From the NCBI GenBank assembly GCA_018971685.1, contig JAGXAG010000003.1:24366-88365 (forward strand): a stretch of DNA of 64,000 nt, read 5' to 3'. Numbering within the stretch: position 1 is the first letter of the stretch; the number at the start of each line of letters is the position of its first letter. This DNA is from Patescibacteria group bacterium. GTDB taxonomy: Bacteria; Patescibacteriota; Minisyncoccia; Phycocordibacterales; PALSA-1337. The notes beneath the pieces were generated by a model, which was not told where the DNA came from, ran no database searches, and saw only the letters and a list, made by a program, of their open reading frames with translations. The translations under genes were made by a program, and so were the position numbers. Positions 8,881 through 45,433 of this stretch are shown here, in pieces.

Positions 8881-9633
8881 TCAATTTTGCGATAACAGCG
8901 CGTCTATGGCGGACTTGATGGTCTGATACGACTGCGCTCCGACCAACGGAATCTTCGTGCCGGAAGGAGTGATCAAGACGGAGAAGGGCGTGCCGGAGAC
9001 GCCGGCGTTCAAGCCGTCGGTATAATCGGCTTCCACTTTGTTTTTGAATTGGCCGCTGGACAGGCAGTCGCTGAAAGCGCTTTGATCCAGGCCGGAATTC
9101 TTGGCCACAGCAAGAAGCATCGCCTGATCGGTCGAAGTGGAATCGACTGCGCCGTTTTCGGGAATGGTGTTATACCAATTTTTCTCGAAAGCCCAGAATT
9201 TGTCATTGCCGCCCAGGGACGCGGCGCATTCCATGGCTTGGGCTTCATGTCCGGCGTTTTTGTGCAATATGTTGCCGTTTTGGTCAGGCTTATCGAGCGG
9301 GAAATGACGATAGATCCAGGCAACTTTGCCGCCGGGACCGTAATCACTCATGATTTGTTCCATGGTGGGGTTGAATAATTTGCAATAAGGACAGGACGGG
9401 TCGGAAAATTCGACGATTTTTATCGGCGCGTTGGGATTGCCAAGAATATGGTCTGCGGCGGTCACCGGTCTCATGTTGATCTGCGCTATTGTTGGTTGCC
9501 CAGTGGCATTTTGATTTTGCGTCGGGGCGGCCGCCGGCTTGTTGACCCAAATTATAGCTATCGCCACCAATGCTCCGGCTACGATAATCGCCGCCGGTAA
9601 AGTCACTAATGAAGAACGGGGTTGTGATTCCAT
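8881..9633 (-). CDS. DsbA-like thiol:disulfide oxidoreductase, membrane-anchored
   Basis: N-terminal TM helix, thioredoxin fold with a CPYC active site (SDPSCPYCKLF), DsbA/BdbD-like length. Confidence 0.7.
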   Translation of the reverse strand: MESQPRSSLVTLPAAIIVAGALVAIAIIWVNKPAAAPTQNQNATGQPTIAQINMRPVTAADHILGNPNAPIKIVEFSDPSCPYCKLFNPTMEQIMSDYGPGGKVAWIYRHFPLDKPDQNGNILHKNAGHEAQAMECAASLGGNDKFWAFEKNWYNTIPENGAVDSTSTDQAMLLAVAKNSGLDQSAFSDCLSSGQFKNKVEADYTDGLNAGVSGTPFSVLITPSGTKIPLVGAQSYQTIKSAIDALLSQN

Positions 9634-10225: not shown

Positions 10226-11505
10226 AAGACAAATTCACTTTCTGCCGTAACGGTTTCATCGCCGGATTTCAGATCTTTGACGCGAAACCTGCCGGTTTTG
10301 GCTTCTTCGTCGCCGATACAGATAATCTTGGGAATGCCGCGCTTGTCGGCCCAAGCTATCTGGTCACCAACTTTTCTGTCCGTTAGGTTGGTAGATACAT
10401 TTATCCCCTTGGCACGGAGCCTGACTGCTAATTCTTGGGCATTTGGAATGAACTTTTCTTCCAGGGTACAAATATGGATTTCGGTCGGATTTTTAATGTC
10501 GGGTAATAACTTGTGAGTTTCTAGGAAGTTTCGAATGGTCACATCGCCCATACCAAAACCGACTGCCGGTATTCTGTCGCCCCCGAATAGGGAAGTGAGG
10601 TCGTCATATCTGCCGCCGCCAAAGAGCGAACGCTTGTTTTCCGGATTGGTGTCGAATATCTCGAACACTACGCCGGTGTAGTAATCGAAGCCGCGAACAA
10701 CGGTGGTCAAATCTATCCGCGCATTAGTGATACTCAAATTTTCAAGTCTCTTAATTATCTGTTTAAGTTTTAAATTCAATTTCTTGTCTATCGCCTCCCA
10801 ATCAATTCCTTTTCCTGAAACGATCTCCGGCGTCAGATTCGTATCAATCTCTTTTAGCCCCCTCATATATTTTTCCGGATCTTTATCTTTTGTATCTAAC
10901 AGGCGGAAGAGTTTTTTCTTGTTTTCTTCGGTTTTCGTAAAATCGCCGAGCTCTACCGCTAACCAATCAAGCCATCTGCGGTCGCCAATCTTAATTGAGA
11001 AATCCTCATCTTTTGCCCCGAAATTTTTCATTATTTGATGGGCCAGAGAAATTATTTCTATATCAGCCTCTATTGAATCAATTCCAAACAAATCCACATT
11101 CAACTGCCAATGTTCTCGTACGCGACCTCGTTGAGGTTGTTCATATCTGAATAGATTGGGTATTGAATACCAGCGTAAAGGCAGTCCCAATTCACGGCGT
11201 TTGGCAGTTACCATTCGGGCGACCGTCGGAGTCATTTCCGGACGCAGGGTAACCTCGCGGCTGCCGCGGTCGGTAAATGTATAGGTCTGCTCGTTGACGA
11301 TCTCTTCGCCGGTCTTGGCGCGGTAAAGTTCGGCCGGTTCGAGAACGGACGCGCCGTATTCTTCGTAACCGTATTTCTCGCAGATATTGCGCCAGACGCC
11401 GAATATGCGCTTTTGTATGGCCATGTCTTCCGGAAAGAAATCACGTACGCCTTTGTATGGCTCGGTCGAGAGTTTCTTTGCCTTGTTCCGGTCGCTATTT
11501 GTCAT
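10222..11505 (-). CDS. hisS: histidine--tRNA ligase
   Basis: 427 aa. HisRS signatures RPEMTPTVARM, LRWYSIPNLFRYEQPQRGRVREHWQ and GGGRYDDL, with a C-terminal anticodon-binding domain. Confidence 0.9.
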   Translation of the reverse strand: MTNSDRNKAKKLSTEPYKGVRDFFPEDMAIQKRIFGVWRNICEKYGYEEYGASVLEPAELYRAKTGEEIVNEQTYTFTDRGSREVTLRPEMTPTVARMVTAKRRELGLPLRWYSIPNLFRYEQPQRGRVREHWQLNVDLFGIDSIEADIEIISLAHQIMKNFGAKDEDFSIKIGDRRWLDWLAVELGDFTKTEENKKKLFRLLDTKDKDPEKYMRGLKEIDTNLTPEIVSGKGIDWEAIDKKLNLKLKQIIKRLENLSITNARIDLTTVVRGFDYYTGVVFEIFDTNPENKRSLFGGGRYDDLTSLFGGDRIPAVGFGMGDVTIRNFLETHKLLPDIKNPTEIHICTLEEKFIPNAQELAVRLRAKGINVSTNLTDRKVGDQIAWADKRGIPKIICIGDEEAKTGRFRVKDLKSGDETVTAESEFVL

Positions 11506-11538
11506 GCTTATAGTCTATCAAAAAACGCGAGAATTTTA

Positions 11539-11573
11539 CACATGTCGGACCTGTGGCATATGTCCGACATGTG
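11539..11573. promoter_or_regulatory. 12-bp perfect inverted repeat CACATGTCGGAC / GTCCGACATGTG in the hisS-pilB divergent intergenic region
   Basis: Read directly. Each arm contains the recurrent GTCGGAC core. A related copy lies upstream of the major pilin gene at about 15883..15901. Confidence 0.45.
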
Positions 11574-11646
11574 AAATCTGTTGACGCGCAAGCAGGATAG
11601 GGGTGTTATCATTCCGTTATCGTTTTATCATTAAATTGTTATCGGT

Positions 11647-11665
11647 TTGTAATCAGATTGTAATC
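11647..11665. promoter_or_regulatory. direct repeat TTGTAATC-N3-TTGTAATC (11-bp periodicity) upstream of pilB
   Basis: Read directly. The homologous TTGTAATC-N3-TTGCAATC lies upstream of the pilin gene at 15952..15970. GTTATC repeats flank it. Confidence 0.4.
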
Positions 11666-11683
11666 TCGGACGCGTATAATGCG

Positions 11684-12784
11684 ATGGTGCAAGAAATTCA
11701 AGCCGACAACGCAGTGACTGCCATAGACACTTTGCTTGAACGCGCGGTTAAAACGCGCGCGTCAGACATACATATTGATCCGCGCGATGACGATACCATG
11801 GTTAGATTCCGGATAGACGGCGTGATTGAGCCGATAGGCGCTTTGCCGGCGCGACTGCACGAAGAAATGATTGCCAGGTTAAAGATATTGTCCGGCTCAC
11901 GGACCGATGTCCACTTTATGCCGCAAGACGGTCGATGGAAAGCTAATGTGTCCGGCGAAGACTACAATGTGCGTATATCATTCATGCCTACTTATTACGG
12001 CGAAAACGCGGTTATCCGATTATTGCCGTCCCGGGCTGCATCCGGCATATCGTTCGCCAAGCTCGGATTCACGCCCGAACATGTGAGGATTATAGCCAAA
12101 ACACTCGAAAAACCGAGCGGCCTGGTCTTGGCGACAGGTCCGACCGGTTCCGGCAAGACAACCACGCTACATGCCTGTTTATCGCTGAAAGCGCGCGAGC
12201 CGCTGTCGATAATCACGCTGGAAGATCCGGTTGAATATGAAATCCCCGATGTGCGCCAAGTCCACATCCGGCATGATTATGGAGTGACTTTCGCTTCCGG
12301 TTTGCGCGCCGCCTTGCGGCAGGATCCGGACATCATCATGGTCGGCGAAATTCGCGACAGCGAAACCGCGCGCGTGGCGATACATACGGCCCTTACTGGT
12401 CACCTGGTTTTTTCCACGCTTCATACCAATTCCGCCATGGAAGCCATTCCACGGCTTCTCGACATGGGAGTTGACCACTACTTGTTGGCTTCGACGCTCC
12501 GCCTGTTGATCGCCCAGCGCCTGATACGCGACACTTGCCGCGAATGTTTCGCCGGAGGTTGCGAGTGTTGCCGGAATACCGGCTATTCCGGGCGCTCAGC
12601 CATCGTCGAAGTTTGCGAAGTAGACAATCATATGAGAGAGATGATAGGTGCACGCGCGCCCTTGTCGGACATCGTCGAATCCGCACATAACAATGGTTTT
12701 CGCGGCATAGAAGAAGACGGAGCAGAAAAGGTCGATTGGGGGGTGACAACTAAGGAAGAAATCATGAGGGTTTTGTATTTGTAG
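11684..12784 (+). CDS. pilB: type IV pilus assembly ATPase (PilB/GspE family), short form
   Basis: Walker A GPTGSGKTT, Asp/His boxes and a C-terminal tetracysteine-like region, matching the GspE/PilB family. The track start GTG 11603 lies inside the conserved upstream element. ATG 11684 is preferred. Confidence 0.85.
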   Translation: MVQEIQADNAVTAIDTLLERAVKTRASDIHIDPRDDDTMVRFRIDGVIEPIGALPARLHEEMIARLKILSGSRTDVHFMPQDGRWKANVSGEDYNVRISFMPTYYGENAVIRLLPSRAASGISFAKLGFTPEHVRIIAKTLEKPSGLVLATGPTGSGKTTTLHACLSLKAREPLSIITLEDPVEYEIPDVRQVHIRHDYGVTFASGLRAALRQDPDIIMVGEIRDSETARVAIHTALTGHLVFSTLHTNSAMEAIPRLLDMGVDHYLLASTLRLLIAQRLIRDTCRECFAGGCECCRNTGYSGRSAIVEVCEVDNHMREMIGARAPLSDIVESAHNNGFRGIEEDGAEKVDWGVTTKEEIMRVLYL

Positions 12785-12788
12785 AAAA

Positions 12789-13853
12789 ATGAAATTCATC
12801 AAGAATAAAAAATGGAAGAAATGGAAAAGAAGAGAGATGATTTTATTCTTGGAGAAAATGGAGCTATATACGGCCTCGGGACTGGCACTGAATAAATCCC
12901 TGAGGATAATCGCCGCCGGTGCGCCCAAGAAACGCAAACCCTCCGTTACTCAAGCCGTGCGGGCGGTTGAAAATGGCGGTTTGTTGGCAAAATCGCTGGA
13001 AGAATACCTTGGCGCGTCGAAAACCGTGGCGGCGCTTCTGGAGCGCGGCGAAACGGCCGGCGAGCTAGTCAAAGCGCTCGGTCAGGCGAAAGCACTTATG
13101 GAAAGAGAAGATGATCTTTATAAAAAATGCGCTTCGGCGATGGTTTATCCTGTGGCTATCGGCGTATTCGCTTTATTGCTTACGATCGGGCTGGTCAGAG
13201 GCGTTATGCCGCAAATTATTCCGATGTTAAAAGGCCTCAATGTTCAGTTACCGCTTTTGACGAGGATCGTCATGTTCGCGTCAGACAATTTGCTGGCATA
13301 TGGCCCGTACATTTTCTTGTCGGCGGGCATGTGCGTTATCGTGGCGCCGATGGTATACAAGAAAATCGCGGCTATCAGAGCGTTTTGCCACTTTGCGGCC
13401 GCCGTTACGCCCTTGGCCGGCAAATTGGTCGTGCAATATTCGCTGTCGGTGTCGTTGCGTTCATGTGGCTCGCTCGTCAATTCCGGCATGAGCGTGGCCA
13501 AAGCATACGCCGATGTGACGGAAACAACATGGTTTTTGCCATTAAAAGTATCTTTGGCCCTAGAAGGCGAGCAAGTGGCGAGAGGCGTGCCTCTAGGAGT
13601 CGTGTTCGCCGGAATCAAGCACTTGCCGGAATATATCGCGCCGCTCGTGATCGCCGGCGAAGCATCTGGTTCTCTCGGCGACTCGCTTATCCGCGCCGCG
13701 GATATATTGGATCGCGACATCGAACATTCCTTGAGGCGGCTAACTGCGCTCATCGAACCAGTGATGATGGCGGGAATGGGATGCGTGGTCGGGGCGATTG
13801 CTCTTTCGATAATGATGCCCATTTATGACATATCGAAAGTTTTGCAACACTGA
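12789..13853 (+). CDS. pilC: type IV pilus platform protein (PilC/GspF family)
   Basis: 354 aa, T2SSF-like with multiple TM helices, and it directly follows pilB. Confidence 0.75.
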   Translation: MKFIKNKKWKKWKRREMILFLEKMELYTASGLALNKSLRIIAAGAPKKRKPSVTQAVRAVENGGLLAKSLEEYLGASKTVAALLERGETAGELVKALGQAKALMEREDDLYKKCASAMVYPVAIGVFALLLTIGLVRGVMPQIIPMLKGLNVQLPLLTRIVMFASDNLLAYGPYIFLSAGMCVIVAPMVYKKIAAIRAFCHFAAAVTPLAGKLVVQYSLSVSLRSCGSLVNSGMSVAKAYADVTETTWFLPLKVSLALEGEQVARGVPLGVVFAGIKHLPEYIAPLVIAGEASGSLGDSLIRAADILDRDIEHSLRRLTALIEPVMMAGMGCVVGAIALSIMMPIYDISKVLQH

Positions 13854-13887
13854 ACTGATTACCGCAAATTCAATCCTGATATTTCGA

Positions 13888-15342
13888 ATGTGCAAAAAGA
13901 TGATCAGATTTTCAACAAAACACGGTTTTGGAATAAATCAAGGAATTATTCTTGTCGACATTCTGTTCGCATTAACATTGGCCTCGGTATTTATCGCGGC
14001 GGTGACAGAATCGTCAATCGGGGCGCGCGAGATATTCGAATACGCCAAAAGGAAAAACACGCTTTTGGACATATTCGATAATTATCACAACGGCGGTGCT
14101 ACAACTTCCGCTGTTACGATAAGCAGTCGGCCGTTCGGCAATGATCGCACTGAAGATATTATCAGGATTTCCTCGCAACTGATATTTTCTTCCATCCAAG
14201 CCAGACCGTTTTCAAATATAAATGAAGTTGCCGGTACCCCGCTGTGTTCTGTTGATCTCATCAACAATACGGTTGTCGGCTCTTACGAGTATTTGAAATC
14301 CGCTGGATTGTACGGCGCGGCCGACGATTCGTCGTCTTCGGTACAATCTTCTTTGGTAACGCGGCCTCCGACCATCACGCCAATAGCCTTGCCGGTAAAT
14401 CCGTTATTGCCGTTGACGGACCTGCAAGTCAGAAATGGCGTCGCTTATATATCGGTGGATTCGTCGACCGCTTCTGATGCGGACTTATTGGCGGTCGATA
14501 TCAACGATAAGCGAAATCCGACAATACTTTCTTCCATCAACACGGGACCGGGGATTTCCTCGTTCGCGCTTGCCGGAAAATTCATTTATGCTGCAGCCGC
14601 AAGCACCGCAGGACAGCTGCATGTCATCGAGATAAACAATCTCAATAAGCTGACGGTCAAAAAGAGATTCAAATTGCCTCTGCCGTATGCGACTGCCACG
14701 CCACCTTACGGCAGCGCGATATTTTACGATCGAGGGATGATTTATCTCGGTACGGAAAAGTGGGATGGTCGCGAATTTTCTGTGATCGACATCACCAATC
14801 CGGCTGATCCGCAGATGATTGGCAGTTTTGAAATCGGCAGTAAAGTTAACAGTGTATTCGTTTTGAACGGCATTGCATATGTAGCAGATTCCGATCAAGA
14901 ACAGTTACGCGTGGTAGATGTGAGCGATCCGGCAAATCCTGTATTAGCAAATTCGTTCAGTCCTTCTGGTTGGGAAAGGCAAGAAGGCAAGGTTGTATCA
15001 ATATTCGAAGGCCGACTTACATTCGGCAGAACTTCCGGCGGTTTCAACATGACCGTTGACCACGAAGCTTTTTCTTGGGCGACAACTTCGCTTACATCCA
15101 TAATGCCACCCCATTCGATGGATGTGCCGGGCGGCGTTTACGGCGCGGTTCAAGACAGAAACGGTATATTTATGGCAACGCGCGATATCAACAAAGAGTT
15201 TCAAATAACAAACCAGATCATATCTTCAACAACTGTTATCGGTTATTCTCTGCCGGTAGCTCCTCAGACCATAACATGCGACAACGGCCGCTTATACATT
15301 CTGGCGCATACCGCGCCTGTCATATATGAGATATCTTTCTGA
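13888..15342 (+). CDS. pilin-like N-terminus fused to an LVIVD-repeat beta-propeller-like domain (candidate pilus-associated adhesin)
   Basis: N-terminus KHGFGINQGIILVDILFALTLASV resembles a prepilin hydrophobic segment. It is followed by repeated D(I/V)(S/T/N)(D/N)PxxPxxxxSF motifs (DINDKRNPTILSSINTGPG, DITNPADPQMIGSFEIGS, DVSDPANPVLANSFSPSG) typical of LVIVD repeats. The start is ambiguous (ATG 13825, 13888 or 13900). Confidence 0.55.
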   Translation: MCKKMIRFSTKHGFGINQGIILVDILFALTLASVFIAAVTESSIGAREIFEYAKRKNTLLDIFDNYHNGGATTSAVTISSRPFGNDRTEDIIRISSQLIFSSIQARPFSNINEVAGTPLCSVDLINNTVVGSYEYLKSAGLYGAADDSSSSVQSSLVTRPPTITPIALPVNPLLPLTDLQVRNGVAYISVDSSTASDADLLAVDINDKRNPTILSSINTGPGISSFALAGKFIYAAAASTAGQLHVIEINNLNKLTVKKRFKLPLPYATATPPYGSAIFYDRGMIYLGTEKWDGREFSVIDITNPADPQMIGSFEIGSKVNSVFVLNGIAYVADSDQEQLRVVDVSDPANPVLANSFSPSGWERQEGKVVSIFEGRLTFGRTSGGFNMTVDHEAFSWATTSLTSIMPPHSMDVPGGVYGAVQDRNGIFMATRDINKEFQITNQIISSTTVIGYSLPVAPQTITCDNGRLYILAHTAPVIYEISF

Positions 15343-15526
15343 TAATGCCAAGACCAATCAAGAGGTCGTCTTAGCGGTTCGTCTGACTCGCGGCATTACG
15401 CTCGTCGAGGTTGTGATTTACGCCGCGTTGTTGTCGGTCTTGCTTGCCGGATTCATTTCTTATGCCTATCGGACTCATCTTGATAACATCCGTTTAACAA
15501 ATGAAATCGAGAATGCTTACAATTGA
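15326..15526 (+). CDS. minor pilin-like protein (prepilin-type N-terminus)
   Basis: RG|ITLVEVVIYAALLSVLLAGFI has Gly at -1 and Glu at +5, followed by a hydrophobic helix. 66 aa. Confidence 0.45.
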   Translation: MRYLSDNAKTNQEVVLAVRLTRGITLVEVVIYAALLSVLLAGFISYAYRTHLDNIRLTNEIENAYN

Positions 15527-15872
15527 CGGAAAACTATCCTATAAAGACGGCTTTGCCGCTCTTGTATCCGTAATCTTGCTTGCGGCTGGTACGACCGCTT
15601 TTTCCTTGTCGACGATGGCGTCGGCCTACTCGTATGCCGATTCCGTAAACCGTAGAGAGTTGCGAATCCAAGCTTCGTTGAATGCCGGCGCATGCTTGGA
15701 CACAGCCAGGCTTATGGTTGCCAAGGATAATTTTTTCACCGGTACCACGACGATTCCATATTTCGGTTGTGAAATAATTGCCGTGAATGATTCTGTTTCT
15801 TCCGTTTCCTTGAATGTAACCGCGCGGTTTGAAGGCGTGTCAGTGCAAAAAAGTGGCATAGCACTGTATTGA
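15501..15872 (+). CDS. pilin/pseudopilin-like protein
   Basis: DG|FAALVSVILLAAGTTAF hydrophobic N-terminal segment after a short leader. 123 aa, within the pilus locus. Confidence 0.4.
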   Translation: MKSRMLTIDGKLSYKDGFAALVSVILLAAGTTAFSLSTMASAYSYADSVNRRELRIQASLNAGACLDTARLMVAKDNFFTGTTTIPYFGCEIIAVNDSVSSVSLNVTARFEGVSVQKSGIALY

Positions 15873-15882
15873 GATTGTATTT

Positions 15883-15970
15883 GCACATGTCCGACATATG
15901 CAAACCTTCGTCATTAAAAAGTCATACTTTCGTCACCAAATCGTTATCAATTTGTAATCGTATTGCAATC
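15883..15970. promoter_or_regulatory. conserved upstream element shared with the pilB upstream region (GTCGGAC-core palindrome plus TTGTAATC-N3-TTGCAATC direct repeat)
   Basis: GCACATGTCCGACATATGC at 15883..15901 and TTGTAATCgtaTTGCAATC at 15952..15970 parallel 11539..11573 and 11647..11665. Confidence 0.45.
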
Positions 15971-16033
15971 TCAGTCTGATACGCTTCTGTATTATTAGCG
16001 GTTTAACCTAGCGGCTAATCAGCCGTAAAAACT

Positions 16034-16540
16034 ATGAATATAAAACATAAGAAAGAGAATATGCGCAGCGGGTTTACATTGATTGAAGTGCTTGTAGTTA
16101 TCGGCATTATCGCTATCCTGGCGACGGTCGTATTGGTTGCGGTAAATCCGGCCCGTCAATTTGCCTTGGCGCGCGATTCCCAGCGCGTGAGCAATGTCAA
16201 CGCCATATTGAACGCCGTCCAGCAGAACATGGCGGAACACCGGGGAGTGTTCACTTGCGCCGGTTCATCAGTCGCCATACCAAGCACGCAAGATTACTTC
16301 ATAGCCACAAGCACGGCCGATGTGACGCAATTGCCTGCCGGCAGTAATATTATCGACCTGTCACCCTGTCTGGTGCCAGATTATATTTCCTCTTTGCCTT
16401 TTGATCCGTCGCAGTACGGCGCCTCTTGGGATGGGGTTGATAAGTATAATACCGGCTACCAAATATTCCGCTATGCCGACGGTCGCATCACCGCCAGTTC
16501 CACCGGCGAACTTACGCCGACCATTTCGGTGACCAGGTAA
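16034..16540 (+). CDS. pilA: type IV major pilin (prepilin N-terminal methylation domain)
   Basis: Classic SGFTLIEVLVVIGIIAILATVVL N-terminus with a 168-aa pilin-sized body. An alternative start at ATG 16061 (MRSGFTLIE) gives a canonical short leader. Confidence 0.85.
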   Translation: MNIKHKKENMRSGFTLIEVLVVIGIIAILATVVLVAVNPARQFALARDSQRVSNVNAILNAVQQNMAEHRGVFTCAGSSVAIPSTQDYFIATSTADVTQLPAGSNIIDLSPCLVPDYISSLPFDPSQYGASWDGVDKYNTGYQIFRYADGRITASSTGELTPTISVTR

Positions 16541-16631
16541 TTCCGGTCATTTGGTTGACAGAATTTATTCATTTGTTATTAGAAGTGCATGACAAGTCTG
16601 GTATTGTAGAACCCTTGGATAAGATTAAGAA

Positions 16632-16659
16632 AGAGCCGCCGAAAGGCGGTTCTTTCTTC
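16632..16659 (+). terminator. rho-independent terminator candidate downstream of pilA
   Basis: Stem AGAGCCGCC, loop GAAA, stem GGCGGTTCT, followed by TTCTTC. Confidence 0.45.
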
Positions 16660-16717
16660 GGATGAAACCAAAAAGCTCTTGATGTCCTGGCACTATCTGT
16701 TAAAATCAGCAGTATAG

Positions 16718-17755
16718 ATGCAACAAAAACACCCGAACATACCTTTATTTGTTGCGGCGAGCTTACTCATTATAGCCGTTGCGATTATCGTACGAATATC
16801 TATGAATGTAGAATCTCCTGTAAATAACATAGGGAATGCTTATGTTGCGACAGAAAACAGCAGAATAATCAAACCCGATGCCGCCTTCTTCCAAATTAAT
16901 AGTGATCGAAATAATACCATCAGTGTTGTTTCGAGCAGACCAGTCGTCGATACCGGCATTGACAACAAAAACATCAGCAGTCAAGTTGGCGGTAATCATA
17001 CAAAAATCGCCACAGATCCATTCATGGCAATGACGGCCAAGGCTTATCTGATCGGCAATGTCGAGACGGGCAAGATTATCATGGAAAAGAACGCCGACGA
17101 GCAGATGCCGGTGGCGTCGATGTCAAAACTGGTAACCGCTATTGTTGCGACAGACACCATGTCTCCAACCACCACGATTACTATCACTCCGGCCGAAGCA
17201 GCCGCGCCGCCGGACGGTAGCGGTATCAGTGCCGGTGAAAGTTATTCGTTGCGGGAACTTTTGTATCCTATGCTCCTTGATTCGTCCAACATTGCGGCTG
17301 AAGCTATAGCGTCGTCGACTGATCGAGTCAAGTTTCTGGAAAACATGTCCAGTTATGCTTGGGAAATCGGCATGCCGCAAGCATATTTTGCCGATCCTTC
17401 CGGCGTCAATCCGCACAACGAAGCTTCAGCTAAAGACATTTTCACTCTTGCCAAATATCTTTATAAATTCAGGCCGGATATATTAAAATTGACCCGTACG
17501 CGGTCGACCTCGGTTGCCACAACTTCCGAACACGCAGCGCACGACTTCGAAAGCATCCACCCCTTCGTATCCGATCCGCGATTTATCGGCGGCAAAACCG
17601 GCCGCACGCCCGAAGCCGGGGAAACCATGCTGACCATTCTGAATATTGATGGTATACCCACGGCTTTTGTAGTCATGGGTTCTGCCTATGGTGCTAGGGA
17701 AGGTGACACGGAGATTCTTATAAGTGCAATGGAGAAACAATTGGTGCGGAGCTAG
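16718..17755 (+). CDS. dacA: D-alanyl-D-alanine carboxypeptidase (serine-type, peptidase S11, PBP5-like)
   Basis: N-terminal TM, SxxK motif ASMSKLVTA, SxN motif DSSN, then KTG-like motif GGKTGRT. Confidence 0.75.
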   Translation: MQQKHPNIPLFVAASLLIIAVAIIVRISMNVESPVNNIGNAYVATENSRIIKPDAAFFQINSDRNNTISVVSSRPVVDTGIDNKNISSQVGGNHTKIATDPFMAMTAKAYLIGNVETGKIIMEKNADEQMPVASMSKLVTAIVATDTMSPTTTITITPAEAAAPPDGSGISAGESYSLRELLYPMLLDSSNIAAEAIASSTDRVKFLENMSSYAWEIGMPQAYFADPSGVNPHNEASAKDIFTLAKYLYKFRPDILKLTRTRSTSVATTSEHAAHDFESIHPFVSDPRFIGGKTGRTPEAGETMLTILNIDGIPTAFVVMGSAYGAREGDTEILISAMEKQLVRS

Positions 17756-18549
17756 TCCCGGGATTTTGCTGCTCTATCTATCGTTGTTGCAGAGATACTG
17801 TCTTTGCCCAACCAACCGCCGATCAATTCTTTTGTCTCGCGCGGGTCTTTCACTTTAATACAATCAATGCCAGTCGCTTTTGCCGGATAATCGTTGCCGC
17901 CCTGGAATAGTGCATCGCCGACAAAAACCATGCGGTCCAGCGGCATCTTCAGATATTCTTCGAGCTTTCTGATGCCGTAGCCCTTATTAACGCCACGCTT
18001 GGTGATATCTATGGAGGTGGTGCCGCCGATACGCACATCAAATTCCGGGATTTTGTTTTTCATTATGTCAACGATCTTTTGGCGTTTGGCATGTCCCGGA
18101 TCCCAGGCCGATTTAAGAGCCAAAGGCGCTTGCTGTCCCAGTGCCGAAAAAGTTATTTGTGAACCGCGATCTTCTATTTGCTGTCCGTAAATTTTGTCCG
18201 GCGTCGCGATTCCGGCCATCATGAGCGACTCGTTCAAGGCTGTCAAAATTTTCTCTTTTTCTTTGGGGGACAGGTGCTCGGCGTATTCTTCACACCACGC
18301 ACCTTTCCATGTGTACAATTTGGTGCCCGAAGTCGGCAACAACAACAAATTGCTCAAGCGGTCGCTTGCGGTCGGCAATCTGACCAGGAATTGTGTTTCG
18401 AATTGATGAAATCCGCCGCCGGAGATCACCGCCACCTTCTTTTTTTCCAGCAAATTGGAGAGTAATTCGCCCATATCCGATTCGAGTGGCGATTTTGAAG
18501 GCGCTAGTGTTCCGTCAAGATCGAATATTATAAGATCGTAGTTAGGCAT
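17752..18549 (-). CDS. phosphomannomutase-like HAD-IIB hydrolase (eukaryotic PMM type)
   Basis: FDLDGTL HAD motif I, ISGGG, and the cap/C-terminal signatures GGTTSIDITKRGVNKGYGI and VFVGDALFQGGNDYPAKA. These parallel eukaryotic-type PMM (GG.ISFDVFP.GWDK, FFGD...GGND). Confidence 0.6.
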   Translation of the reverse strand: MPNYDLIIFDLDGTLAPSKSPLESDMGELLSNLLEKKKVAVISGGGFHQFETQFLVRLPTASDRLSNLLLLPTSGTKLYTWKGAWCEEYAEHLSPKEKEKILTALNESLMMAGIATPDKIYGQQIEDRGSQITFSALGQQAPLALKSAWDPGHAKRQKIVDIMKNKIPEFDVRIGGTTSIDITKRGVNKGYGIRKLEEYLKMPLDRMVFVGDALFQGGNDYPAKATGIDCIKVKDPRETKELIGGWLGKDSISATTIDRAAKSRD

Positions 18550-18570
18550 TTGTAAACTGCGAACATCGGT

Positions 18571-20475
18571 TCATGTTTCCAGCATTTTCAGTATAGCACT
18601 TACTTTTACTGTCGCCACTCCGACTACGCTGTCGGCGGCACCGTAATATATGTACGCAGTATTACCTCGTACCACCAGGCCGCAAGGGAAGACGACATTG
18701 GGCATCGCGCCCTTGCGCTCGTATTCAGCTTCCGGCTCAAAAAGCGGTATTGCGGTGCGGGCTTTGATGACGGTTGGATCTTCCAAGTCGAGTAATACGG
18801 CGCCGATACGATAAGTTGTGCTCCATGATACGCCATGATACAAGAGCAGCCAACCTTCTCTCGTCTTTATCGGCGGTGCTGAAATGCCAACCTTGCCGCC
18901 GTCCCACATGCCGCGTCTTGGCGACAACATCTCGATACATTCATTGATTTTTTCTTTTGAAAAATCCAAAGAATTCAAAAAGTCGGCGCAAACACTTTCT
19001 TGGACACGATGAAAAACCATATACTTACCATTTACCGGCTCTGGCAAGATGGTGGCGTCTTTATCCATGATATTGGGCGGCGTGATCACTTGCGGTTCGG
19101 TCCAAGCACCCCACTTTTTGTCCAGGAATTCCTTTTCACCTATAAATGATACGGCTACGCGCGGCGTGCTGCCGTCATAGGCGGTGTAGGACATATAGAG
19201 GCGGTCGCCGATCTTGACTATGCGCGGGTCCTCACAGCCATAATTACTCTTTTCGTTGCCGCGTCTCTCGAAGACCGCACGCGGGAAATAAATCGGCTTG
19301 TCCAATCGTTCGTCGATGGATAGGCCGTCATGCGAAGCGGCATAGCCTATAGTAGATACATTCTCGTCGGAAACAGCGCGGTAGAGAATATGGATCTTGT
19401 CGCCGAGTTCGACCGCGGCCGGATTCATGGTGCCTTTCGCTTCCCAGGAATAGCCTGGTCTGGACGCGATGATCGGATTGCCGGGGAATCGGACGATTTT
19501 TTTCTCCTCGATACCAGTGATGCTTTTGAGCAGATTATCCAAAGGGATTGTGGCGACGGCGCAATAAGTGTCGGTGGCGCCATAATATACTTCCAAACGG
19601 CCGTTTTTGATGAGCGCGCCTGACGGGAAAATCACATTCGGTACCTGGCCGACTTGTTCATAGTATGCGTCCGGCACCATGAACGGTCCCTTGGTGCGTC
19701 CGATGACCGTACGCGGATTTTCCAAGTCCAACAAAATTGTTTCAATACCGAAAGTTACATCGGCGGTGCCGTATCTCTGGATATGCGCGTATACCACCAA
19801 CCACCCCTTGTCGGTTTTAACCGGTGGCGCGCCCAATTCCAAGTGATCGCTTGGCAATCTGCGGATATGGATCTTATGCGCATCCAGATTCTTCCGCCAA
19901 TCTTCCCAATATTGCGACGACCACATGTCTTCAATCTTGTCGAATTCAGCATAGCAGATATCCGATGGCGGGTGATCAGTGTTAACGGTCAAGAGCAGGC
20001 CGATTTTGCCGTTAATCCTCTCAGGAAACATAGCGATACCTTTTGCGTTGAACGGCGTTATCGCATGCTTTTCTTTGATCATATTCAAATCATCGCTTAT
20101 AGCCACGGCGGTTTTTATATTCTCGGCCGAGAATGGGTAGCCGCCGAGGCCGGTGTAGAAAATATAGTATTTGCCTTCAAATGCGGTGACGCGCGGGTCT
20201 TCACAGCCGAACTTGTCGAACGGTTGGTCTGGCCGTACCAACAGCTTTCTGTCGGTGAAGTGCCTTCTATCCGGTTCGGCCAAAGCCTTGGCAATCGCCG
20301 AAGTTCTTATATGCGGCTCTTTCAGCAGCTGCGGTTCGGACATCGCCCGATAGACCAAGTACATGTCTTTGCCGTGAATTATGGGACAGCCGTTAAAAGC
20401 GGCCGCGGCTTCCCATGGGTGATCTTTGGTGGGCGAAAGAATGGGATTGTGTTCGGAGCGGGTGAGAGTGAACAT
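18571..20475 (-). CDS. tandem double-domain GH130 family protein (mannoside phosphorylase/glycosidase-like)
   Basis: Two successive GH130 modules, each with the NPI(L/I).P..WE..FNP, GCEDPR, KGWL..YH and YYGA(A/T)D signatures. The track start is TTG 20523. ATG 20475 (MFTLTRSEHNPILSP) is preferred and leaves a 44-bp gap after the upstream gene. Confidence 0.8.
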   Translation of the reverse strand: MFTLTRSEHNPILSPTKDHPWEAAAAFNGCPIIHGKDMYLVYRAMSEPQLLKEPHIRTSAIAKALAEPDRRHFTDRKLLVRPDQPFDKFGCEDPRVTAFEGKYYIFYTGLGGYPFSAENIKTAVAISDDLNMIKEKHAITPFNAKGIAMFPERINGKIGLLLTVNTDHPPSDICYAEFDKIEDMWSSQYWEDWRKNLDAHKIHIRRLPSDHLELGAPPVKTDKGWLVVYAHIQRYGTADVTFGIETILLDLENPRTVIGRTKGPFMVPDAYYEQVGQVPNVIFPSGALIKNGRLEVYYGATDTYCAVATIPLDNLLKSITGIEEKKIVRFPGNPIIASRPGYSWEAKGTMNPAAVELGDKIHILYRAVSDENVSTIGYAASHDGLSIDERLDKPIYFPRAVFERRGNEKSNYGCEDPRIVKIGDRLYMSYTAYDGSTPRVAVSFIGEKEFLDKKWGAWTEPQVITPPNIMDKDATILPEPVNGKYMVFHRVQESVCADFLNSLDFSKEKINECIEMLSPRRGMWDGGKVGISAPPIKTREGWLLLYHGVSWSTTYRIGAVLLDLEDPTVIKARTAIPLFEPEAEYERKGAMPNVVFPCGLVVRGNTAYIYYGAADSVVGVATVKVSAILKMLET

Positions 20476-20519
20476 TTCGATGAATAACCAATAATCAAGA
20501 TACAATAACCAAACAACGA

Positions 20520-21644
20520 TCAATCAATTTTACCATAGTCGTTCAACCAATCCAGCAACCCTTTGAGCGGCGTATGCGCCACGCACACATGCTTGTCGCC
20601 GCCGCCGTAGTAGACAAAGAGATCATTGTTTTTGATCGTGGCACCGCAAGCGTATACCACTCCCGGTTTCCAATCGTTCTCGTACCATTCCGACGGCACC
20701 AATATCGGCGCTGGCGAGCGCGCTATGACTTTGGTCGGTTCAGCCAAATCGAGCAGCATGGCTCCAAGCTTATAACCGATCTGCGGCTCTTTCTTGTCCA
20801 TGGCGTGATACAAGAGCAGCCAGCCGCGATCGGTTTTCAAAGGCGGCGGCCCGGCGCTGCGAACCAAATTATCCCAATGATTAGGCCGGCCCGGTTGCGG
20901 TCCGCTCTTTCTGGGACTTTCGATTTCTCGCGGGATCGAATCTATCGAATCGACATATTCTATCTCTATCTTCGGTACGATGGAGTGAATGATGGCGAAT
21001 TTGCCGTTGATCTTTTCCGGGAATAAAACCCAGTTTTTGTTTATCTGATTCTTGGAAGAAATGAATATCGGCCGCCTCCAATTCCAGCGCTTGTTGAAGA
21101 AATCCGACGCTTTGATCGAAGTCACCGCGATCCGGATGAAATCCCAGCCGTCAAAGGCGTTGTAAGTCATGTAAATATTGTCGCCGATCCTGACCAGTCT
21201 AGGATCTTCACAGCCGCCCCAACTGCCGCCGGAAGGGAACATGACGGGGTCGGGCTTTTTCAAATCGTCAGGAACATCTTCGACGATATTTTCCCTTGGC
21301 TTCCGCATGGCGAATACCGGATAATCTGACCGGTCATCGAAGCGCAAGCCGTCTTTGCTGGAAGCGTAACCGATGCGCGAGACGCCGTCGGAACCGATAG
21401 CGCGGTAGAGGAGATGCACGCCGCCCTTGTCGTCTTGGATTGCCGCAGGATTGAAAGTGCCGGCCGCTTCCCAGTCATTCCAAGATTGTGGCGATATGAC
21501 CGGATTGGCGCCGTGGCGCTTGACTTTGGAATGGCCATAAATTATTTCTCGGCTACGCGCGGCCGCGAGAGCATATAATAGGACAACAACTGCGGCTGCG
21601 AAAGCGATTAATGATATTAAAAGTGCATTGTACGATTGTTGCAT
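20520..21644 (-). CDS. GH130 family protein with N-terminal transmembrane anchor
   Basis: TM helix LLISLIAFAAAVVVLLYALAA, then the GH130 signatures NPVISP..WEAAGTFNPAA, GCEDPRLV, RGWLLLYHA and VYYGGGD. Confidence 0.8.
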   Translation of the reverse strand: MQQSYNALLISLIAFAAAVVVLLYALAAARSREIIYGHSKVKRHGANPVISPQSWNDWEAAGTFNPAAIQDDKGGVHLLYRAIGSDGVSRIGYASSKDGLRFDDRSDYPVFAMRKPRENIVEDVPDDLKKPDPVMFPSGGSWGGCEDPRLVRIGDNIYMTYNAFDGWDFIRIAVTSIKASDFFNKRWNWRRPIFISSKNQINKNWVLFPEKINGKFAIIHSIVPKIEIEYVDSIDSIPREIESPRKSGPQPGRPNHWDNLVRSAGPPPLKTDRGWLLLYHAMDKKEPQIGYKLGAMLLDLAEPTKVIARSPAPILVPSEWYENDWKPGVVYACGATIKNNDLFVYYGGGDKHVCVAHTPLKGLLDWLNDYGKID

Positions 21645-41891: not shown

Positions 41892-43187
41892 ATGTCGAAA
41901 TTCCAAATAACAGTTATCGGTATCTTCATAGTCGCAATAATCGCCGGAGTGGCAGTCTTCGCTACTTACAAAGGTGCGGGAAGTTCAAGCACCCAACTGC
42001 CGCCCATAACGGTTTGGGGAACTTTTCCGGCGGACACTTTCAACAATTATGTTGCAAAAATAAACCAAACGCTGTCCGCGCCATTGGGCATTACCTATGT
42101 GCAAAAAAGCCAGTCGGCATTTTCGGACGACTTCGTCAGAGCGTTGGCGGTTGGGCAGGGGCCTGATGCCATTTTGGTGCCGGCGGACATGCTTCTGCCG
42201 CAAATGAACAAGATAACGCCGATACCTTATACCGCCTTGTCGCAGAGAACATTCATGGACTCGTACATCAACGAAGCGCAGATTTATCTTTCCAATAATG
42301 GCGCATTGGCGGTTCCATTTGTGATTGACCCGCTGGTGATGTATTGGAACAAGGACATGTTCGCGGCGGCCGGCCTGGCATCATATCCCAAGTATTGGGA
42401 CGAATTCACGGCCTTAAATAAAACGCTGACGCAAAAAGACCAAAACGGCAATATCAGGCGCTCGGCGATTGCTATGGGCGACTTTAACACGGTTCTTAAC
42501 GCTCGCGAACTTCTAGGTACACTATTCCTTCAGTCCGGCAACACCGTGACTTCCATAAGCTCTACCGGCGCGGTTACTAGCGCGCTTTCAAATTCCGGAC
42601 CGACAAATCTGTCATCAGCACTTCAATATTTTACACAATTTGTCAATCCGAACAGTTCGAATTATTCTTGGAATGGCGGAATGACTGATTCGAAAACAGC
42701 ATTTCTTTCGGGCACGCTGGCGACTTATTTTGGTTTTGCTTCGGAATTGGGCGACATTAGAGCCAAGAATCCAAACCTGAATTTTGATGTCGCGCCTATA
42801 CCGCAATGGCGTTCTGGCGGCCAAAAAGCTACTTACGGACGCATGTATGGATTTTCATTAGTGCGCGCCTCATCCAACCAAAACGCCGCTTATCAGACTA
42901 TCGCCATTTTGACCAACCAGGCCAATCTTTCCATGTTGTCCCAGATGACTTATCTGCCGCCGGTCAGTTCGTCCTTGATAGCTCAAGGATCTTCTGATCC
43001 GTATATGACGATCTTTGACCAAGCGGCGCTCATTTCCCGCACCTGGTTTGATGCCGACCAAGCGCAGTCGTATCAGATATTCGGCAATATGGTTAACGCC
43101 GTCGTGAGCGGCGCCAAGAATGCGAGTGACGCGATCAATGACGCTTCGGATCAGTATAATGTGGTGTTGGGGCAGGCGACGCAGTGA
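41892..43187 (+). CDS. membrane-anchored extracellular solute-binding protein, family 1-like (orphan)
   Basis: N-terminal TM anchor (ITVIGIFIVAIIAGVAVFATY) and an SBP_bac_1-like body (ITVWG, DAILVPADML, IDPLVMYWNKDMF). No permease or ATPase genes are adjacent. The track start is TTG 41826. ATG 41892 is preferred. Confidence 0.55.
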   Translation: MSKFQITVIGIFIVAIIAGVAVFATYKGAGSSSTQLPPITVWGTFPADTFNNYVAKINQTLSAPLGITYVQKSQSAFSDDFVRALAVGQGPDAILVPADMLLPQMNKITPIPYTALSQRTFMDSYINEAQIYLSNNGALAVPFVIDPLVMYWNKDMFAAAGLASYPKYWDEFTALNKTLTQKDQNGNIRRSAIAMGDFNTVLNARELLGTLFLQSGNTVTSISSTGAVTSALSNSGPTNLSSALQYFTQFVNPNSSNYSWNGGMTDSKTAFLSGTLATYFGFASELGDIRAKNPNLNFDVAPIPQWRSGGQKATYGRMYGFSLVRASSNQNAAYQTIAILTNQANLSMLSQMTYLPPVSSSLIAQGSSDPYMTIFDQAALISRTWFDADQAQSYQIFGNMVNAVVSGAKNASDAINDASDQYNVVLGQATQ

Positions 43188-43203
43188 TTTGCGATTTACG
43201 AAT

Positions 43204-43557: not shown

Positions 43558-43569
43558 CATATAATTCAA

Positions 43570-44043: not shown

Positions 44044-44065
44044 AATTATAAATTAATAAAATAAA

Positions 44066-44476: not shown

Positions 44477-44482
44477 ACAGCC

Positions 44483-44938: not shown

Positions 44939-45039
44939 TGATGTTAAAAGTAATCCACAGAACGATCCTTGTGTCGTAAAGCAGATAAGTTGTATCATTA
45001 AACAGTAAATATTATTATCAATAATTAGAGATTCATAAC

Positions 45040-45432: not shown

Positions 45433-45433
45433 C

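Follow-up and report, generated by a model that had tools for sequence, protein, structure and literature searches.

A probable modular minor pilin carrying a seven-bladed LVIVD propeller in a conserved type IV filament locus of Patescibacteria

Introduction

Modular pilins occur widely, and a location at the filament tip has been proposed for them (PMC8179133). Among the minor pilins, the essential ones are those that are conserved, and these build a tip complex whose cap is a subunit that lacks Glu5 (PMC10191384). In Saccharibacteria, the minor pilin PilX2 has been described as having a signal peptide of non-canonical type and a heptabladed propeller; its deletion halves host binding while filaments remain (PMC11623550). 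The propeller-on-pilin architecture is consequently known from other bacteria; the family presented here has not been described before.

The gene that founds this family comes from an uncultivated, ultra-small bacterium of the Patescibacteria and lies in a window of 64,000 nucleotides, which is the whole stretch of DNA that was analysed. According to the data presented below, its product is probably a modular minor pilin belonging to a compact type IV filament system found in many Patescibacteria lineages, a subunit which would both prime the filament and form part of its tip.

The pilus cassette and its conservation

The genes of the cassette are the following:

11603..12784, + strand: extension ATPase, short and PilB/GspE/ComGA-like, 393 aa (Pfam T2SSE, E=3.3e-110)
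12789..13853, + strand: platform protein, PilC/GspF/ComGB-like, 354 aa (Pfam T2SSF, E=7.2e-33, two stretches)
13900..15342, + strand: propeller pilin-like protein, modular, 480 aa (100% match at NCBI; LVIVD, 46.5 bits; AF2 model, pLDDT 92 and pTM 0.88)
15326..15526, + strand: p66, a very small pilin with the canonical class III signal TRG↓ITLVE (the arrow marks the cut), mature form of ~43 aa that is essentially alpha1 only (Pfam N_methyl, E=1.5e-4)
15501..15872, + strand: p123, pilin-like, G↓FAALV, no acidic residue at +5, two conserved Cys (family consensus)
16034..16540, + strand: probable major pilin, 168 aa, SG↓FTLIEVLVVIGIIAIL, GFTLIE signal (N_methyl, E=1.4e-7, and TIGR02532)

The longest frame of the propeller ORF found in the ORF scan spans 13825-15342 (+), with ATG codons at 13888 and 13900. 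Translation from the second of them yields 480 aa, 100% identical to the 480-aa NCBI record [quoted passage not shown]. The 480-aa ORF of an earlier, sequence-only reading is consequently real, with the correction that the start given there, 13888, is an alternative ATG, the NCBI protein starting at 13900. That reading had also placed the ORF between pilC and the minor pilins, which agrees with the platform gene at 12789-13853 and the pilin-like ORFs from 15326 onwards, in an order kept in ~70 species. A promoter/terminator scan of 11400-16800 gave nothing better than shuffled sequence.

Synteny was counted in 73 related loci from about 70 species representatives. The order PilB-PilC-propeller-p66-p123 is kept in 60-72 of these 73 loci, with the ATPase gene upstream of the propeller gene in 66, the platform gene directly 5' of it in 72, p66 present in 60 and p123 in 64 (the latter two fused in ~6 loci). 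The family is widespread in Patescibacteria, its records being labelled Paceibacterota, Parcubacteria, Taylorbacteria and others. The ATPase scores below the equivalog cutoffs of the NCBIfam GspE and PilB models, and its best PDB sequence matches are PilB, PilF and GspE (E about 1e-85 to 1e-80).

The propeller gene shares 17 nt with p66 (15326 vs 15342), which in turn shares 26 nt with p123 (15501 vs 15526). The p66 family has the consensus G↓MTLIEV.IY..LLS, in which Glu5 is present. The p123 protein has no Pfam match; its family shows the N-terminus G↓F(I/M/T)A(L/V/T)(I/T)AV, devoid of an acidic residue at +5, and a conserved ACLD...FGC, and this protein is a candidate for the cap subunit. 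A homologue of the 168-aa pilin is found downstream in 29/73 loci, with a median identity of 59% across its family, and its profile retrieves the solved pilins PpdD, geopilin, PilA and PilE1 from the PDB sequences (E=4e-7 to 6e-3). Because its sequence is canonical and highly conserved, this protein is probably the major pilin.

Pfam detected no prepilin peptidase (A24), PilT or PilMNO in the 64-kb window, where FtsA gave a weak, sub-threshold match to PilM_2 only. A crude screen for GxGD[VI]K in hydrophobic ORFs likewise found no prepilin peptidase within +/-6 kb of the cassette in 70 related loci. For the canonical GFTLIE pilin to be processed, this enzyme would have to be encoded elsewhere in the genome.

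The arrangement of the locus bears directly on whether the protein has anything to do with a filament. LVIVD repeats typically occur in cell-surface proteins of diverse kinds (PMC2447325), and the family profile also matches thousands of giant LVIVD proteins, so that an ordinary surface protein with a signal anchor, lying next to the pilus genes by chance and with no link to the filament, might be imagined. Such a protein would hardly have kept its place between pilC and the minor pilins in essentially every locus of ~70 species at 31-57% identity. The overlapping ORFs, which suggest translational coupling, and the pilin-type invariants at the N-terminus (see below) also speak against this explanation, which we consider extremely improbable.

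Domain architecture and predicted structure

The protein can be divided into four parts:

13900..13944, + strand: putative leader peptide, residues 1-15 (MIRFSTKHGFGINQG), the last residue being the conserved Gly-1 (G15 in 94/94 homologues)
13945..14202, + strand: pilin-like module, residues 16-101, with alpha1 to residue 63, D20 as Asp+5 and a 3-stranded antiparallel sheet (D20 in 112/112 homologues; PilFind motif; AF2; hhalign)
14203..14370, + strand: linker, residues 102-157, with the invariant Cys116 (14245-14247) and a variable, indel-rich stretch (alignment; AF2 pLDDT)
14371..15339, + strand: seven-bladed LVIVD beta-propeller, residues 158-480, with the invariant Cys460 (15277-15279) (AF2; Foldseek; loop conservation)

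The LVIVD repeats claimed in the sequence-only reading are confirmed by the Pfam model PF08309, which matches two stretches of the protein well above its threshold (E=2.3e-12, 46.5 bits vs a cutoff of 20.2). The pattern D[IV][STN][DN]PxxPxxxxSF occurs exactly twice, as DITNPADPQMIGSF at residue 297 and DVSDPANPVLANSF at residue 340, and once loosely, as DINDKRNPTILSSI at residue 200; in 20000 shuffled versions of the protein, not a single exact match turned up. The model TIGR04312 scores only 18.9 bits vs a cutoff of 100.

The AF2 model of the full protein (pLDDT 92, pTM 0.88) predicts a helix of ~50 residues (14-63), three strands (72-79, 83-90 and 94-101) and then a propeller of 28 strands, organised in seven sets of four and mostly with pLDDT >90, while pLDDT drops to about 60 in the linker (residues 141-150). 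The beta-propeller on an N-terminal helix that had been anticipated is in this way predicted with high confidence. When the C-terminal part was compared with the PDB by Foldseek, 7- and 8-bladed propellers were retrieved, with E values down to 2.5e-10, the best of them being non-enzymatic WD40-type propellers. In addition, all 114 sequences hold C116 and C460, which may form a disulfide, and the family holds the specific invariant motifs NTGPG, GTEKWDGxE, PSGWxRQEG, GRTSGGF and GGVYG.

A prepilin-type N-terminus

The conserved cleavage-type motif is NQG↓IILVD, with G15 at -1 and D20 at +5. The Gly at -1 is found in all 94 homologues that reach this column and the Asp at +5 in 112/112, never replaced by Glu, while positions -2 and -3 are mostly R/K/S/N/Q in a leader which is short and basic. 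The site implied by the earlier reading, HG↓FGINQ (G9), has to be replaced by this one, since its columns are not conserved and it would place a Gln at +5.

The PilFind rule, [GAS]x4[DE] followed by 14 uncharged residues, matches at residue 15. The same motif is found in 94 of the 114 homologues, at residue <=40 in 93 of these 94 sequences; the other 20 are gene calls that start at +1, and in both of the two that were checked a basic leader lies upstream in frame and ends in G. PilFind and its authors allow either D or E at +5 (PMC3244431). The protein is longer than the PilFind limit (<350 aa) because it is modular. In a six-frame scan of the 64-kb window, the motif was found at the N-terminus of a gene only in the propeller gene, p66 and the major pilin.

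When the N-terminal module was aligned with the major-pilin profile by hhalign, G-1 fell on G-1 and D5 on E5 (E=8e-4, probability 25%), a result to be read with the ease with which hydrophobic helices align; against the p66 profile, E was 0.044. One homologue (P0012) has been annotated as "pseudopilin PulG" by JGI.

The general pilin models are blind to this N-terminus. PF07963 (N_methyl) and TIGR02532, which do match p66 and the 168-aa pilin, gave no match on the propeller protein at E<=1, and even at E<=10, 24 N-termini of the family yielded no PF07963 match. Among the PDB sequences, no solved pilin was retrieved at E<=10 by an HMM built from the N-terminal module, in a search where the neighbouring major-pilin profile finds pilins, and Foldseek of the isolated N-terminal model (pLDDT 82) against the PDB gave nothing significant and no pilins. 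A search of the N-terminal profile against a collection of 5.8 billion proteins, intended to find this stalk combined with different head domains, gave no match at E<=0.001 and is uninformative, since the family members were not recovered either. The prepilin-like N-terminus put forward in the earlier reading therefore holds as regards its hydrophobic segment, its invariant Gly-1 and Asp+5 and its PilFind motif, and finds no echo in the N_methyl and TIGR02532 models. From the sequence pattern, this N-terminus likely behaves as a class III (prepilin) signal that would be cleaved after G15.

These negative searches would also be expected if the protein were an uncleaved bitopic membrane protein of the machinery, in which the helix serves as a permanent anchor and the propeller, placed at the outer face of the membrane or in the wall zone, plays an alignment or scaffold role in replacement of PilM/N/O- or GspC/L/M-type proteins, never entering the filament. 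The absence of PilMNO-like genes from the cassette fits this explanation, as does conservation at the level of PilC, which is expected of machinery, and the conserved face of the propeller (see below) could be a protein-protein interface. However, a plain anchor leaves unexplained the invariant Gly and the Asp exactly at +5 within a hydrophobic segment, which are pilin positions, as well as the 50-residue helix followed by a small sheet and the in-register alignment with the major pilin. Moreover, monoderm Com-type systems assemble without PilMNO (PMC10191384). We regard such a machinery protein as unlikely.

Conservation and charge of the propeller

The propeller protein shows a median identity of 45% (31-57% across loci), vs 49% for PilC. 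Of the 45 loop positions conserved at >=90%, 39 lie in two loop classes on one face of the propeller. The invariant polar residues (D187, D193, D195, K287, W288, E292, R360, Q361, E362, R377, D387, E389, Y414, R428 and E433) are located in these loop classes or at strand ends, on one face. A tip adhesin for host attachment, as proposed in the sequence-only reading, is plausible; nevertheless, the high conservation of the sequence argues against a host-specific adhesin. PilC-like conservation together with a near-invariant face fits better a core subunit for priming and tip formation, whose partner or ligand is conserved, than a fast-evolving adhesin of that kind.

Invariant polar residues on one face, beyond what the repeat fold needs, might also constitute an active site, and the propeller would then be an enzyme, either presented by the pilus or anchored in the membrane, that modifies for example glycans or the cell wall. 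Peptidase modules have been predicted in some modular pilins (PMC8179133), and genes for a DD-carboxypeptidase and GH130/PMM flank the cassette in 18-23 of the 73 loci, a proximity which may be general synteny only. Against an enzymatic role, no enzyme family in Pfam or NCBIfam matches the protein, an hmmsearch of the full-length profile against the PDB sequences was empty, and the best structural matches are the non-enzymatic propellers mentioned above. An enzyme is in our opinion very improbable.

Both modules of the protein are acidic in all 114 homologues, with a median pI of 4.8 and a net charge of about -12 for the propeller, and a median pI of 4.6 for the pilin module. This property is relevant to a further alternative, in which the protein is the DNA receptor at the tip of a competence-type (Com-like) pilus, the counterpart of ComZ, a large minor pilin of Thermus, and serves nucleotide scavenging in a genome-reduced bacterium. 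The ATPase and the platform protein are short, like ComGA and ComGB, and match the models of these two proteins with scores under the cutoffs; the arrangement of the genes is similar to comGA-GB plus pilins; and large modular minor pilins such as ComZ can bind DNA (PMC8179133). Nonetheless, such acidity is unfavourable for DNA binding, the ATPase scores higher on the GspE and PilB models than on ComGA, and no comEA or comEC gene adjoins the cassette. Given this acidity across the whole family, we hold this role to be quite improbable.

Proposed mechanism

For the favoured explanation, a modular minor pilin, the following sequence of events can be proposed. The hydrophobic helix would insert the preprotein into the membrane, where the prepilin peptidase encoded elsewhere would cut after G15, and Asp5 would take over the charge-neutralising role of the usual Glu5. 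The mature propeller protein, the helix-only p66, which provides a Glu5, and p123, of the Glu5-less cap type, would then assemble on the PilC platform into a priming complex. As filaments grow from the tip towards the base, this complex would end up at the tip, and a propeller of 320 residues, too bulky for the filament body, would be displayed there. On this analysis, the tip is the most likely location of the protein. There the propeller may recognise a ligand that is itself conserved; a surface glycan or some other component of the partner-cell surface is the most plausible candidate. Alternatively, the conserved face may dock on the other tip subunits, with the variable face turned outward.

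A more specific version of this proposal can be formulated, to which we give less credit and which we advance only tentatively. It postulates that the functions of a PilY1-like propeller and of a pilin have been merged into one core subunit with an Asp5 signal, that this subunit forms a minimal three-protein priming/tip complex with the helix-only pilin and the Glu5-less cap, and that the invariant acidic face reads a ligand common to many partners, such as a cell-wall glycan. If true, the protein would be what a large group of uncultivated bacteria generally uses for attachment.

Significance

Patescibacteria represent a large part of bacterial diversity. To our knowledge, every member cultivated so far lives attached to a host cell, and we know of essentially no described mode of attachment outside Saccharibacteria. 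With its conservation and well-predicted structure, the propeller family provides a concrete candidate for the functional tip of the pilus in the lineages in which it was found, labelled Paceibacterota, Parcubacteria and Taylorbacteria, and it defines a putative minimal tip set of three genes. The analysis also indicates that modular-pilin surveys based on IPR012902, as well as surveys of prepilin substrates, miss a well-populated Asp+5 class. The advance is incremental, because modular pilins and the propeller-bearing minor pilin of Saccharibacteria were already established.

Comparison with known systems

The priming complexes of the GspK/PilX(PilK) type, including GspH-I-J-K and ComGD-GG, resemble the present cassette in that the gene for the largest minor subunit sits with those of smaller minor pilins beside the ATPase and platform genes, the subunit evolves at a core-like rate and a Glu5-less partner, here p123, is found in the same cassette. 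GspK holds no acidic residue at +5 and has an inserted alpha-domain, whereas the propeller protein has an invariant Asp and a C-terminal propeller; the absence of an acidic +5, which defines the cap type, is consequently found in the p123 family and not in the propeller protein, where D20 is invariant. Furthermore, complexes of the GspH-I-J-K type have four components, while the cassette has only three non-major pilin-like genes.

PilY1/PilC of diderm T4aP (IPR008707/PF05567), known from Pseudomonas, Neisseria and Myxococcus, would be a functional analogue: there, too, a propeller is presented at the tip along with a priming complex of minor pilins. PilY1 itself is no pilin and docks non-covalently on minor pilins of the PilVWX/FimU type, while in the protein studied here the propeller is covalently fused to a pilin-like module. 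The comparison with PilY1/PilC-type adhesins suggested by the sequence-only reading sets the protein outside that family: PF05567 gave no match at E<=1, PilY1 is absent from the top 50 Foldseek matches in the PDB, and the N-terminus is pilin-like and not of the Sec type.

The repeat family, the beta-propeller and the presumed extracytoplasmic location are shared with the LVIVD (PF08309) surface proteins known from archaea and bacteria (Adindla et al. 2004, PMC2447325) and with the "choice-of-anchor B" proteins (TIGR04312). Those proteins rely on a Sec signal and a C-terminal anchor, and many of them are giant and multi-repeat, in contrast to the single propeller on a pilin-like N-terminus described here.

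In overall design, the protein resembles PilB and PilC of Streptococcus sanguinis, which carry a vWA and a lectin module, respectively (Raynaud et al. 2021, PMC8179133; PMC9934059). In both cases a small pilin module, which in the present protein is a predicted pilin-like one, made of alpha1 and a small sheet, is followed by a linker and by a bulky domain that is not pilus-specific, the gene lies among minor pilins of a monoderm-type system, and a tip location has been proposed. Here, the module is a 7-bladed LVIVD propeller and the residue at +5 is Asp, not Glu, all of this being known from the sequence and a structural model. The architecture of a modular pilin is present according to AF2 and the LVIVD HMM, in a protein that lacks the IPR012902 signature required by the formal definition of Raynaud et al. 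2021. Since IPR012902/PF07963, the signature used in that survey, does not detect the family, the survey would have missed it.

Finally, PilX2 of the T4P-2 system of Nanosynbacter lyticus TM7x also holds seven blades on a pilin-like N-terminus and is a candidate tip adhesin (PMC11623550). Its propeller is built from RCC1 repeats, for which the LVIVD protein gave no match at E<=1, and on this description the two proteins are set apart. While the PilX2 gene is found in a separate pilin locus, the propeller gene directly follows pilC. According to the TM7x study, the pilins of that organism show poor conservation across the other Patescibacteria phyla (PMC11623550), in contrast to the propeller family, which is well conserved across its ~70 species.

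The propeller gene and its cassette

The gene located by the sequence-only reading between pilC and small pilin-like ORFs has been confirmed as a real, well-supported feature, and that reading was right in outline. The longest frame covers 13825-15342 (+) and holds ATG codons at 13888, the start adopted in the reading, and at 13900, which gives a 480-aa product (hereafter, the propeller protein) with 100% identity to the NCBI entry 'hypothetical protein KGQ27_01795 [Patescibacteria group bacterium]'. The LVIVD repeats claimed for it are recovered by Pfam (PF08309, 46.5 bits vs. a threshold of 20.2, E=2.3e-12), and the repeat pattern then described occurs twice exactly and a third time loosely, but in none of 20000 protein shuffles.

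Features of the cassette and its right flank (16718-21644). Fractions are related loci with a tblastn match to the window protein, and percentages are median identities to it; in motifs, the bar separates positions -1 and +1.
11603-12784, upstream of the propeller gene: short PilB/GspE-type ATPase (T2SSE, E=3e-110; closest solved proteins PilB/PilF/GspE); 66/73; 64%
12789-13853, directly upstream of the propeller gene: PilC/GspF platform protein (T2SSF, E=7e-33); 72/73; 49%
13900-15342 (+): propeller protein; 45%
15326-15526 (+): p66, a 66-aa ORF overlapping the propeller gene by 17 nt, with the canonical signal TRG|ITLVE and an N_methyl match; 60/73; 46%
15501-15872, downstream: p123, a 123-aa ORF overlapping by 26 nt, with N-terminal KDG|FAALV; 64/73; 47%
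16034-16540, downstream past a 161-nt gap: canonical 168-aa pilin, taken as the major pilin (SG|FTLIE; N_methyl, TIGR02532); 29/73; 59%
16718-17755, right flank: DD-carboxypeptidase; 23/73
17752-18549 (-), right flank: phosphomannomutase; 18/73
18571-21644 (-), right flank: two GH130 beta-1,4-mannooligosaccharide phosphorylase homologues

A word-indexed search returned at least 372 homologues of the propeller protein, which align over the full length at 42-59% identity; every one comes from a Patescibacteria-type metagenome bin. Among the top 150 matches of an exhaustive profile search, about a hundred are representatives of 50%-identity clusters that have the full length of about 420-530 aa, and the remaining ones are giant LVIVD proteins. 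Scanning one genome per GTDB species yielded 70 loci, nearly all labeled Paceibacterota, Parcubacteria, Taylorbacteria, Minisyncoccia or Patescibacteria; many third-party (TPA) assemblies carry the label 'Saccharibacteria', and the sole 'Verrucomicrobia' match is a 1-kb contig. Since the neighbors are nearly always present among the 73 loci compared by tblastn, with absences falling mostly at contig ends, pilB-pilC-propeller gene-p66-p123 constitutes a fixed cassette, and the called genes of three loci agree with this picture. Median identities put the evolutionary rate of the propeller protein level with that of the platform protein.

The DD-carboxypeptidase and phosphomannomutase genes lie beside the cassette even in loci whose propeller protein has as little as 31% identity, and GH130 genes are annotated in the window and in three loci with called genes. 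This association may be plain synteny or a hint of mannoside-related biology.

The N-terminus

The prepilin-like N-terminus proposed by the sequence-only reading stands as a motif, but at a different site: the columns of its HGFGINQ segment are variable, and the cleavage site was wrong. In alignments of 30 and then 114 homologues, the conserved element begins at G15 (pilin position -1), with the consensus [K/R/N/S][R/S/K/Q]G|(I/M/L)IL(V/I)D(I)(L)(L)A(L)(S)L, which in the window reads NQG|IILVD. G15 is present in all 94 homologues reaching that column and D20 (position +5) in 112/112. Twenty homologues that seemingly lack the Gly are gene calls beginning at a frequent Met at +1; both of the two inspected regain a basic leader with a terminal G when read from an in-frame ATG further upstream (MTYRRRSSADRGG|MILLD and MISRKLSRDSRSG|MIAVD). 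Because both residues are invariant and the apparent losses of Gly are late gene calls, the motif can be written as Gly-1, Asp+5, and then 16 uncharged residues.

Public gene calls of many members start at this Met, losing the leader peptide and Gly-1 (two related loci, L002 and L003, both at 8001, and ~20 database proteins, e.g., P0035, P0076 and P0106), and the upstream ATGs that restore the leaders overlap the end of pilC.

This N-terminus satisfies the PilFind rule ([GAS]x4[DE] plus 14 uncharged residues), whose authors explicitly accept E or D at +5 (PMC3244431). When the rule was applied to the six-frame ORFs of the 64-kb window with 50 codons or more, 13 matches were obtained, and only those of the propeller protein, p66 and the 168-aa pilin are at the N-terminus of a gene. 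The pilin profiles PF07963 and TIGR02532 do not match the propeller protein, and relaxing PF07963 to E<=10 gave no match among 24 family N-termini. A profile of its first 100 residues retrieved no solved pilin, whereas the same search with the profile of the neighboring major pilin retrieves PpdD, geopilin, PilA and PilE1. Profile-profile comparison with the major-pilin family places G on G and D on E5 over 47 columns, at only E=8e-4 and a probability of 25%; the comparison with p66 gives E=0.044.

Predicted structure and propeller surface

An AlphaFold2 model built from the 114-sequence alignment (pLDDT 92, pTM 0.88) shows an unstructured leader, a single continuous helix (residues 14-63), three antiparallel strands (72-79, 83-90 and 94-101), a linker (102-157) with an indel-rich, low-confidence stretch and, as the earlier reading anticipated, a propeller, predicted with seven blades and 28 strands (7 x 4, residues 158-479). 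Foldseek against the PDB finds generic 7-/8-bladed propellers (beta-TrCP, Nup43, G-beta and BamB; E down to 2.5e-10), and PilY1 is not among the top 50 matches. Cys116, in the linker, and Cys460, in the last blade, are invariant in the 114 sequences, and a putative disulfide between them, fixing the propeller to the stalk, is plausible.

The main rival explanation holds that the protein is an uncleaved, membrane-anchored component of the machinery. It would account for the conservation of the family and for the negative HMM searches, but it leaves the invariant Gly-1 and Asp+5 and the pilin-like stalk unexplained, and is regarded as improbable.

In a beta-meander, consecutive loops alternate between two faces. 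If the four strands of each blade are called x, y, z and w, one face carries the x-to-y loops together with the z-to-w loops. This face accounts for 39 of the 45 loop positions with a conservation of 90% or more (mean top-residue frequencies 0.81 and 0.73), and the y-to-z and w-to-x loops of the opposite face for 6 (0.62 and 0.51). The canonical LVIVD hallmark, DxS/TDPxxP, sits in the less conserved w-to-x loops, and the invariants of the conserved face (NTGPG, GTEKWDGxE, PSGWxRQEG, GRTSGGF, DxE and GGVYG) are family-specific. From this pattern we infer a conserved function for one face, either binding of a conserved ligand or contact with conserved partners. The propeller is acidic in every homologue (median pI 4.8, net charge ~-12), and direct DNA binding by it is unlikely. 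Specific evidence also counts against each of the other rivals, which make the protein a DNA receptor, an enzyme at the tip or a surface protein unrelated to the pilus.

Partner subunits and proposed role

In the p66 family the signal is the canonical G|MTLIE, and the mature form has only ~43 residues, essentially an alpha1 helix with no globular head, which makes it an unusually small pilin. The p123 family shows G|F(I/M/T)A(L/V/T)(I/T)AV, with a non-acidic +5 and two conserved Cys. In known systems, a priming complex of conserved essential minor pilins comes to lie at the tip, where a subunit lacking Glu5 caps it (PMC10191384). The trio of propeller protein (Asp5), p66 (Glu5) and p123 (no acidic +5) fits a minimal version of this scheme. 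As the acidic +5 is kept, the propeller protein is not a GspK-type cap.

In ~6 related loci, p66 and p123 are fused into a single ORF (...NEVEEAQKG|FVATTAV...; L015 7506-7979, L024 3686-4105, L026 6981-7442, L030 7437-7835, L037 7415-7864 and L043 7555-8052; compare 15326-15872 in the window). Two class-III-like hydrophobic N-termini on one polypeptide are topologically puzzling, and suggest either that p66 and p123 function together or that p123 does not use its hydrophobic segment as a cleaved signal.

Given the operon context, invariants, predicted architecture and conservation pattern, the propeller protein is probably a pilin-type subunit entering the filament at its tip. It would enter the membrane via alpha1, a prepilin peptidase from elsewhere in the genome would cleave it between G15 and the next residue, and Asp5 would stand in for Glu5. 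Together with p66 and p123, it would assemble into a priming complex on PilC, and its propeller would be displayed at the filament tip and bind a surface ligand. No prepilin peptidase was found in the window or, by a crude motif screen, in the 6 kb on either side of the 70 related loci; the canonical GFTLIE pilin nevertheless needs one. The specific role of host adhesin claimed earlier exceeds the evidence: it is a tentative reading, clearly less likely than that of a tip pilin-type subunit.

Other features of the window

8881-9633 (-): membrane-anchored DsbA-like thioredoxin (Thioredoxin_4, E=4e-22; DSBA, E=7e-18)
43120-45733 (+): tandem array of six small ORFs (99-157 aa) that are paralogous
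48392-49873 (-): 493-aa ORF, Pro-rich over long tracts (PxPxP repeats) and with a hydrophobic segment at its center; no Pfam family

The thioredoxin gene lies ~2 kb upstream of pilB and is also found in one related locus (L001). The propeller protein has two conserved or invariant Cys, as do p123 and the major pilin, and a link between these pairs and the thioredoxin is speculative. The tandem ORFs all match T4SS_pilin (PF18895), five at E=5e-8 to 8e-11 and the sixth, which also has a weak TrbC/VirB2 match, at E=4e-4, below the cutoff; they form a VirB2-like pilin gene array unrelated to the type IV pilus cassette.

Comparison with known systems

PilB and PilC of Streptococcus sanguinis carry a functional module grafted on a small pilin module, probably tip-exposed, and more than 1200 modular pilins have been catalogued via IPR012902 (PMC8179133). 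In its predicted structure, the propeller protein shares this modular architecture; its family lacks the IPR012902 signature and would therefore have escaped that catalogue. A tip propeller on a minor-pilin complex would also resemble PilY1, although membership of that family was rejected (no PF05567 match, and a pilin-like N-terminus).

In the saccharibacterium TM7x, the minor pilin PilX2 is the closest specific analogue: it bears a heptabladed RCC1 propeller, its signal peptide is not predicted as a PilD substrate, and without it host binding falls by roughly half although filaments are still made (PMC11623550). The two differ in repeat family, as the propeller protein has LVIVD repeats and no RCC1 match, and in gene context, since, unlike pilX2, its gene lies directly 3' of pilC in a conserved cassette. 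Moreover, the TM7x pilins show, according to their authors, little conservation in other Patescibacteria phyla (PMC11623550), whereas the propeller protein is well conserved over ~70 carrier species. Modular pilins are already known, and this family would add to them a minor pilin with Asp5 and an LVIVD propeller, belonging to the core of a minimal pilus cassette in Patescibacteria.
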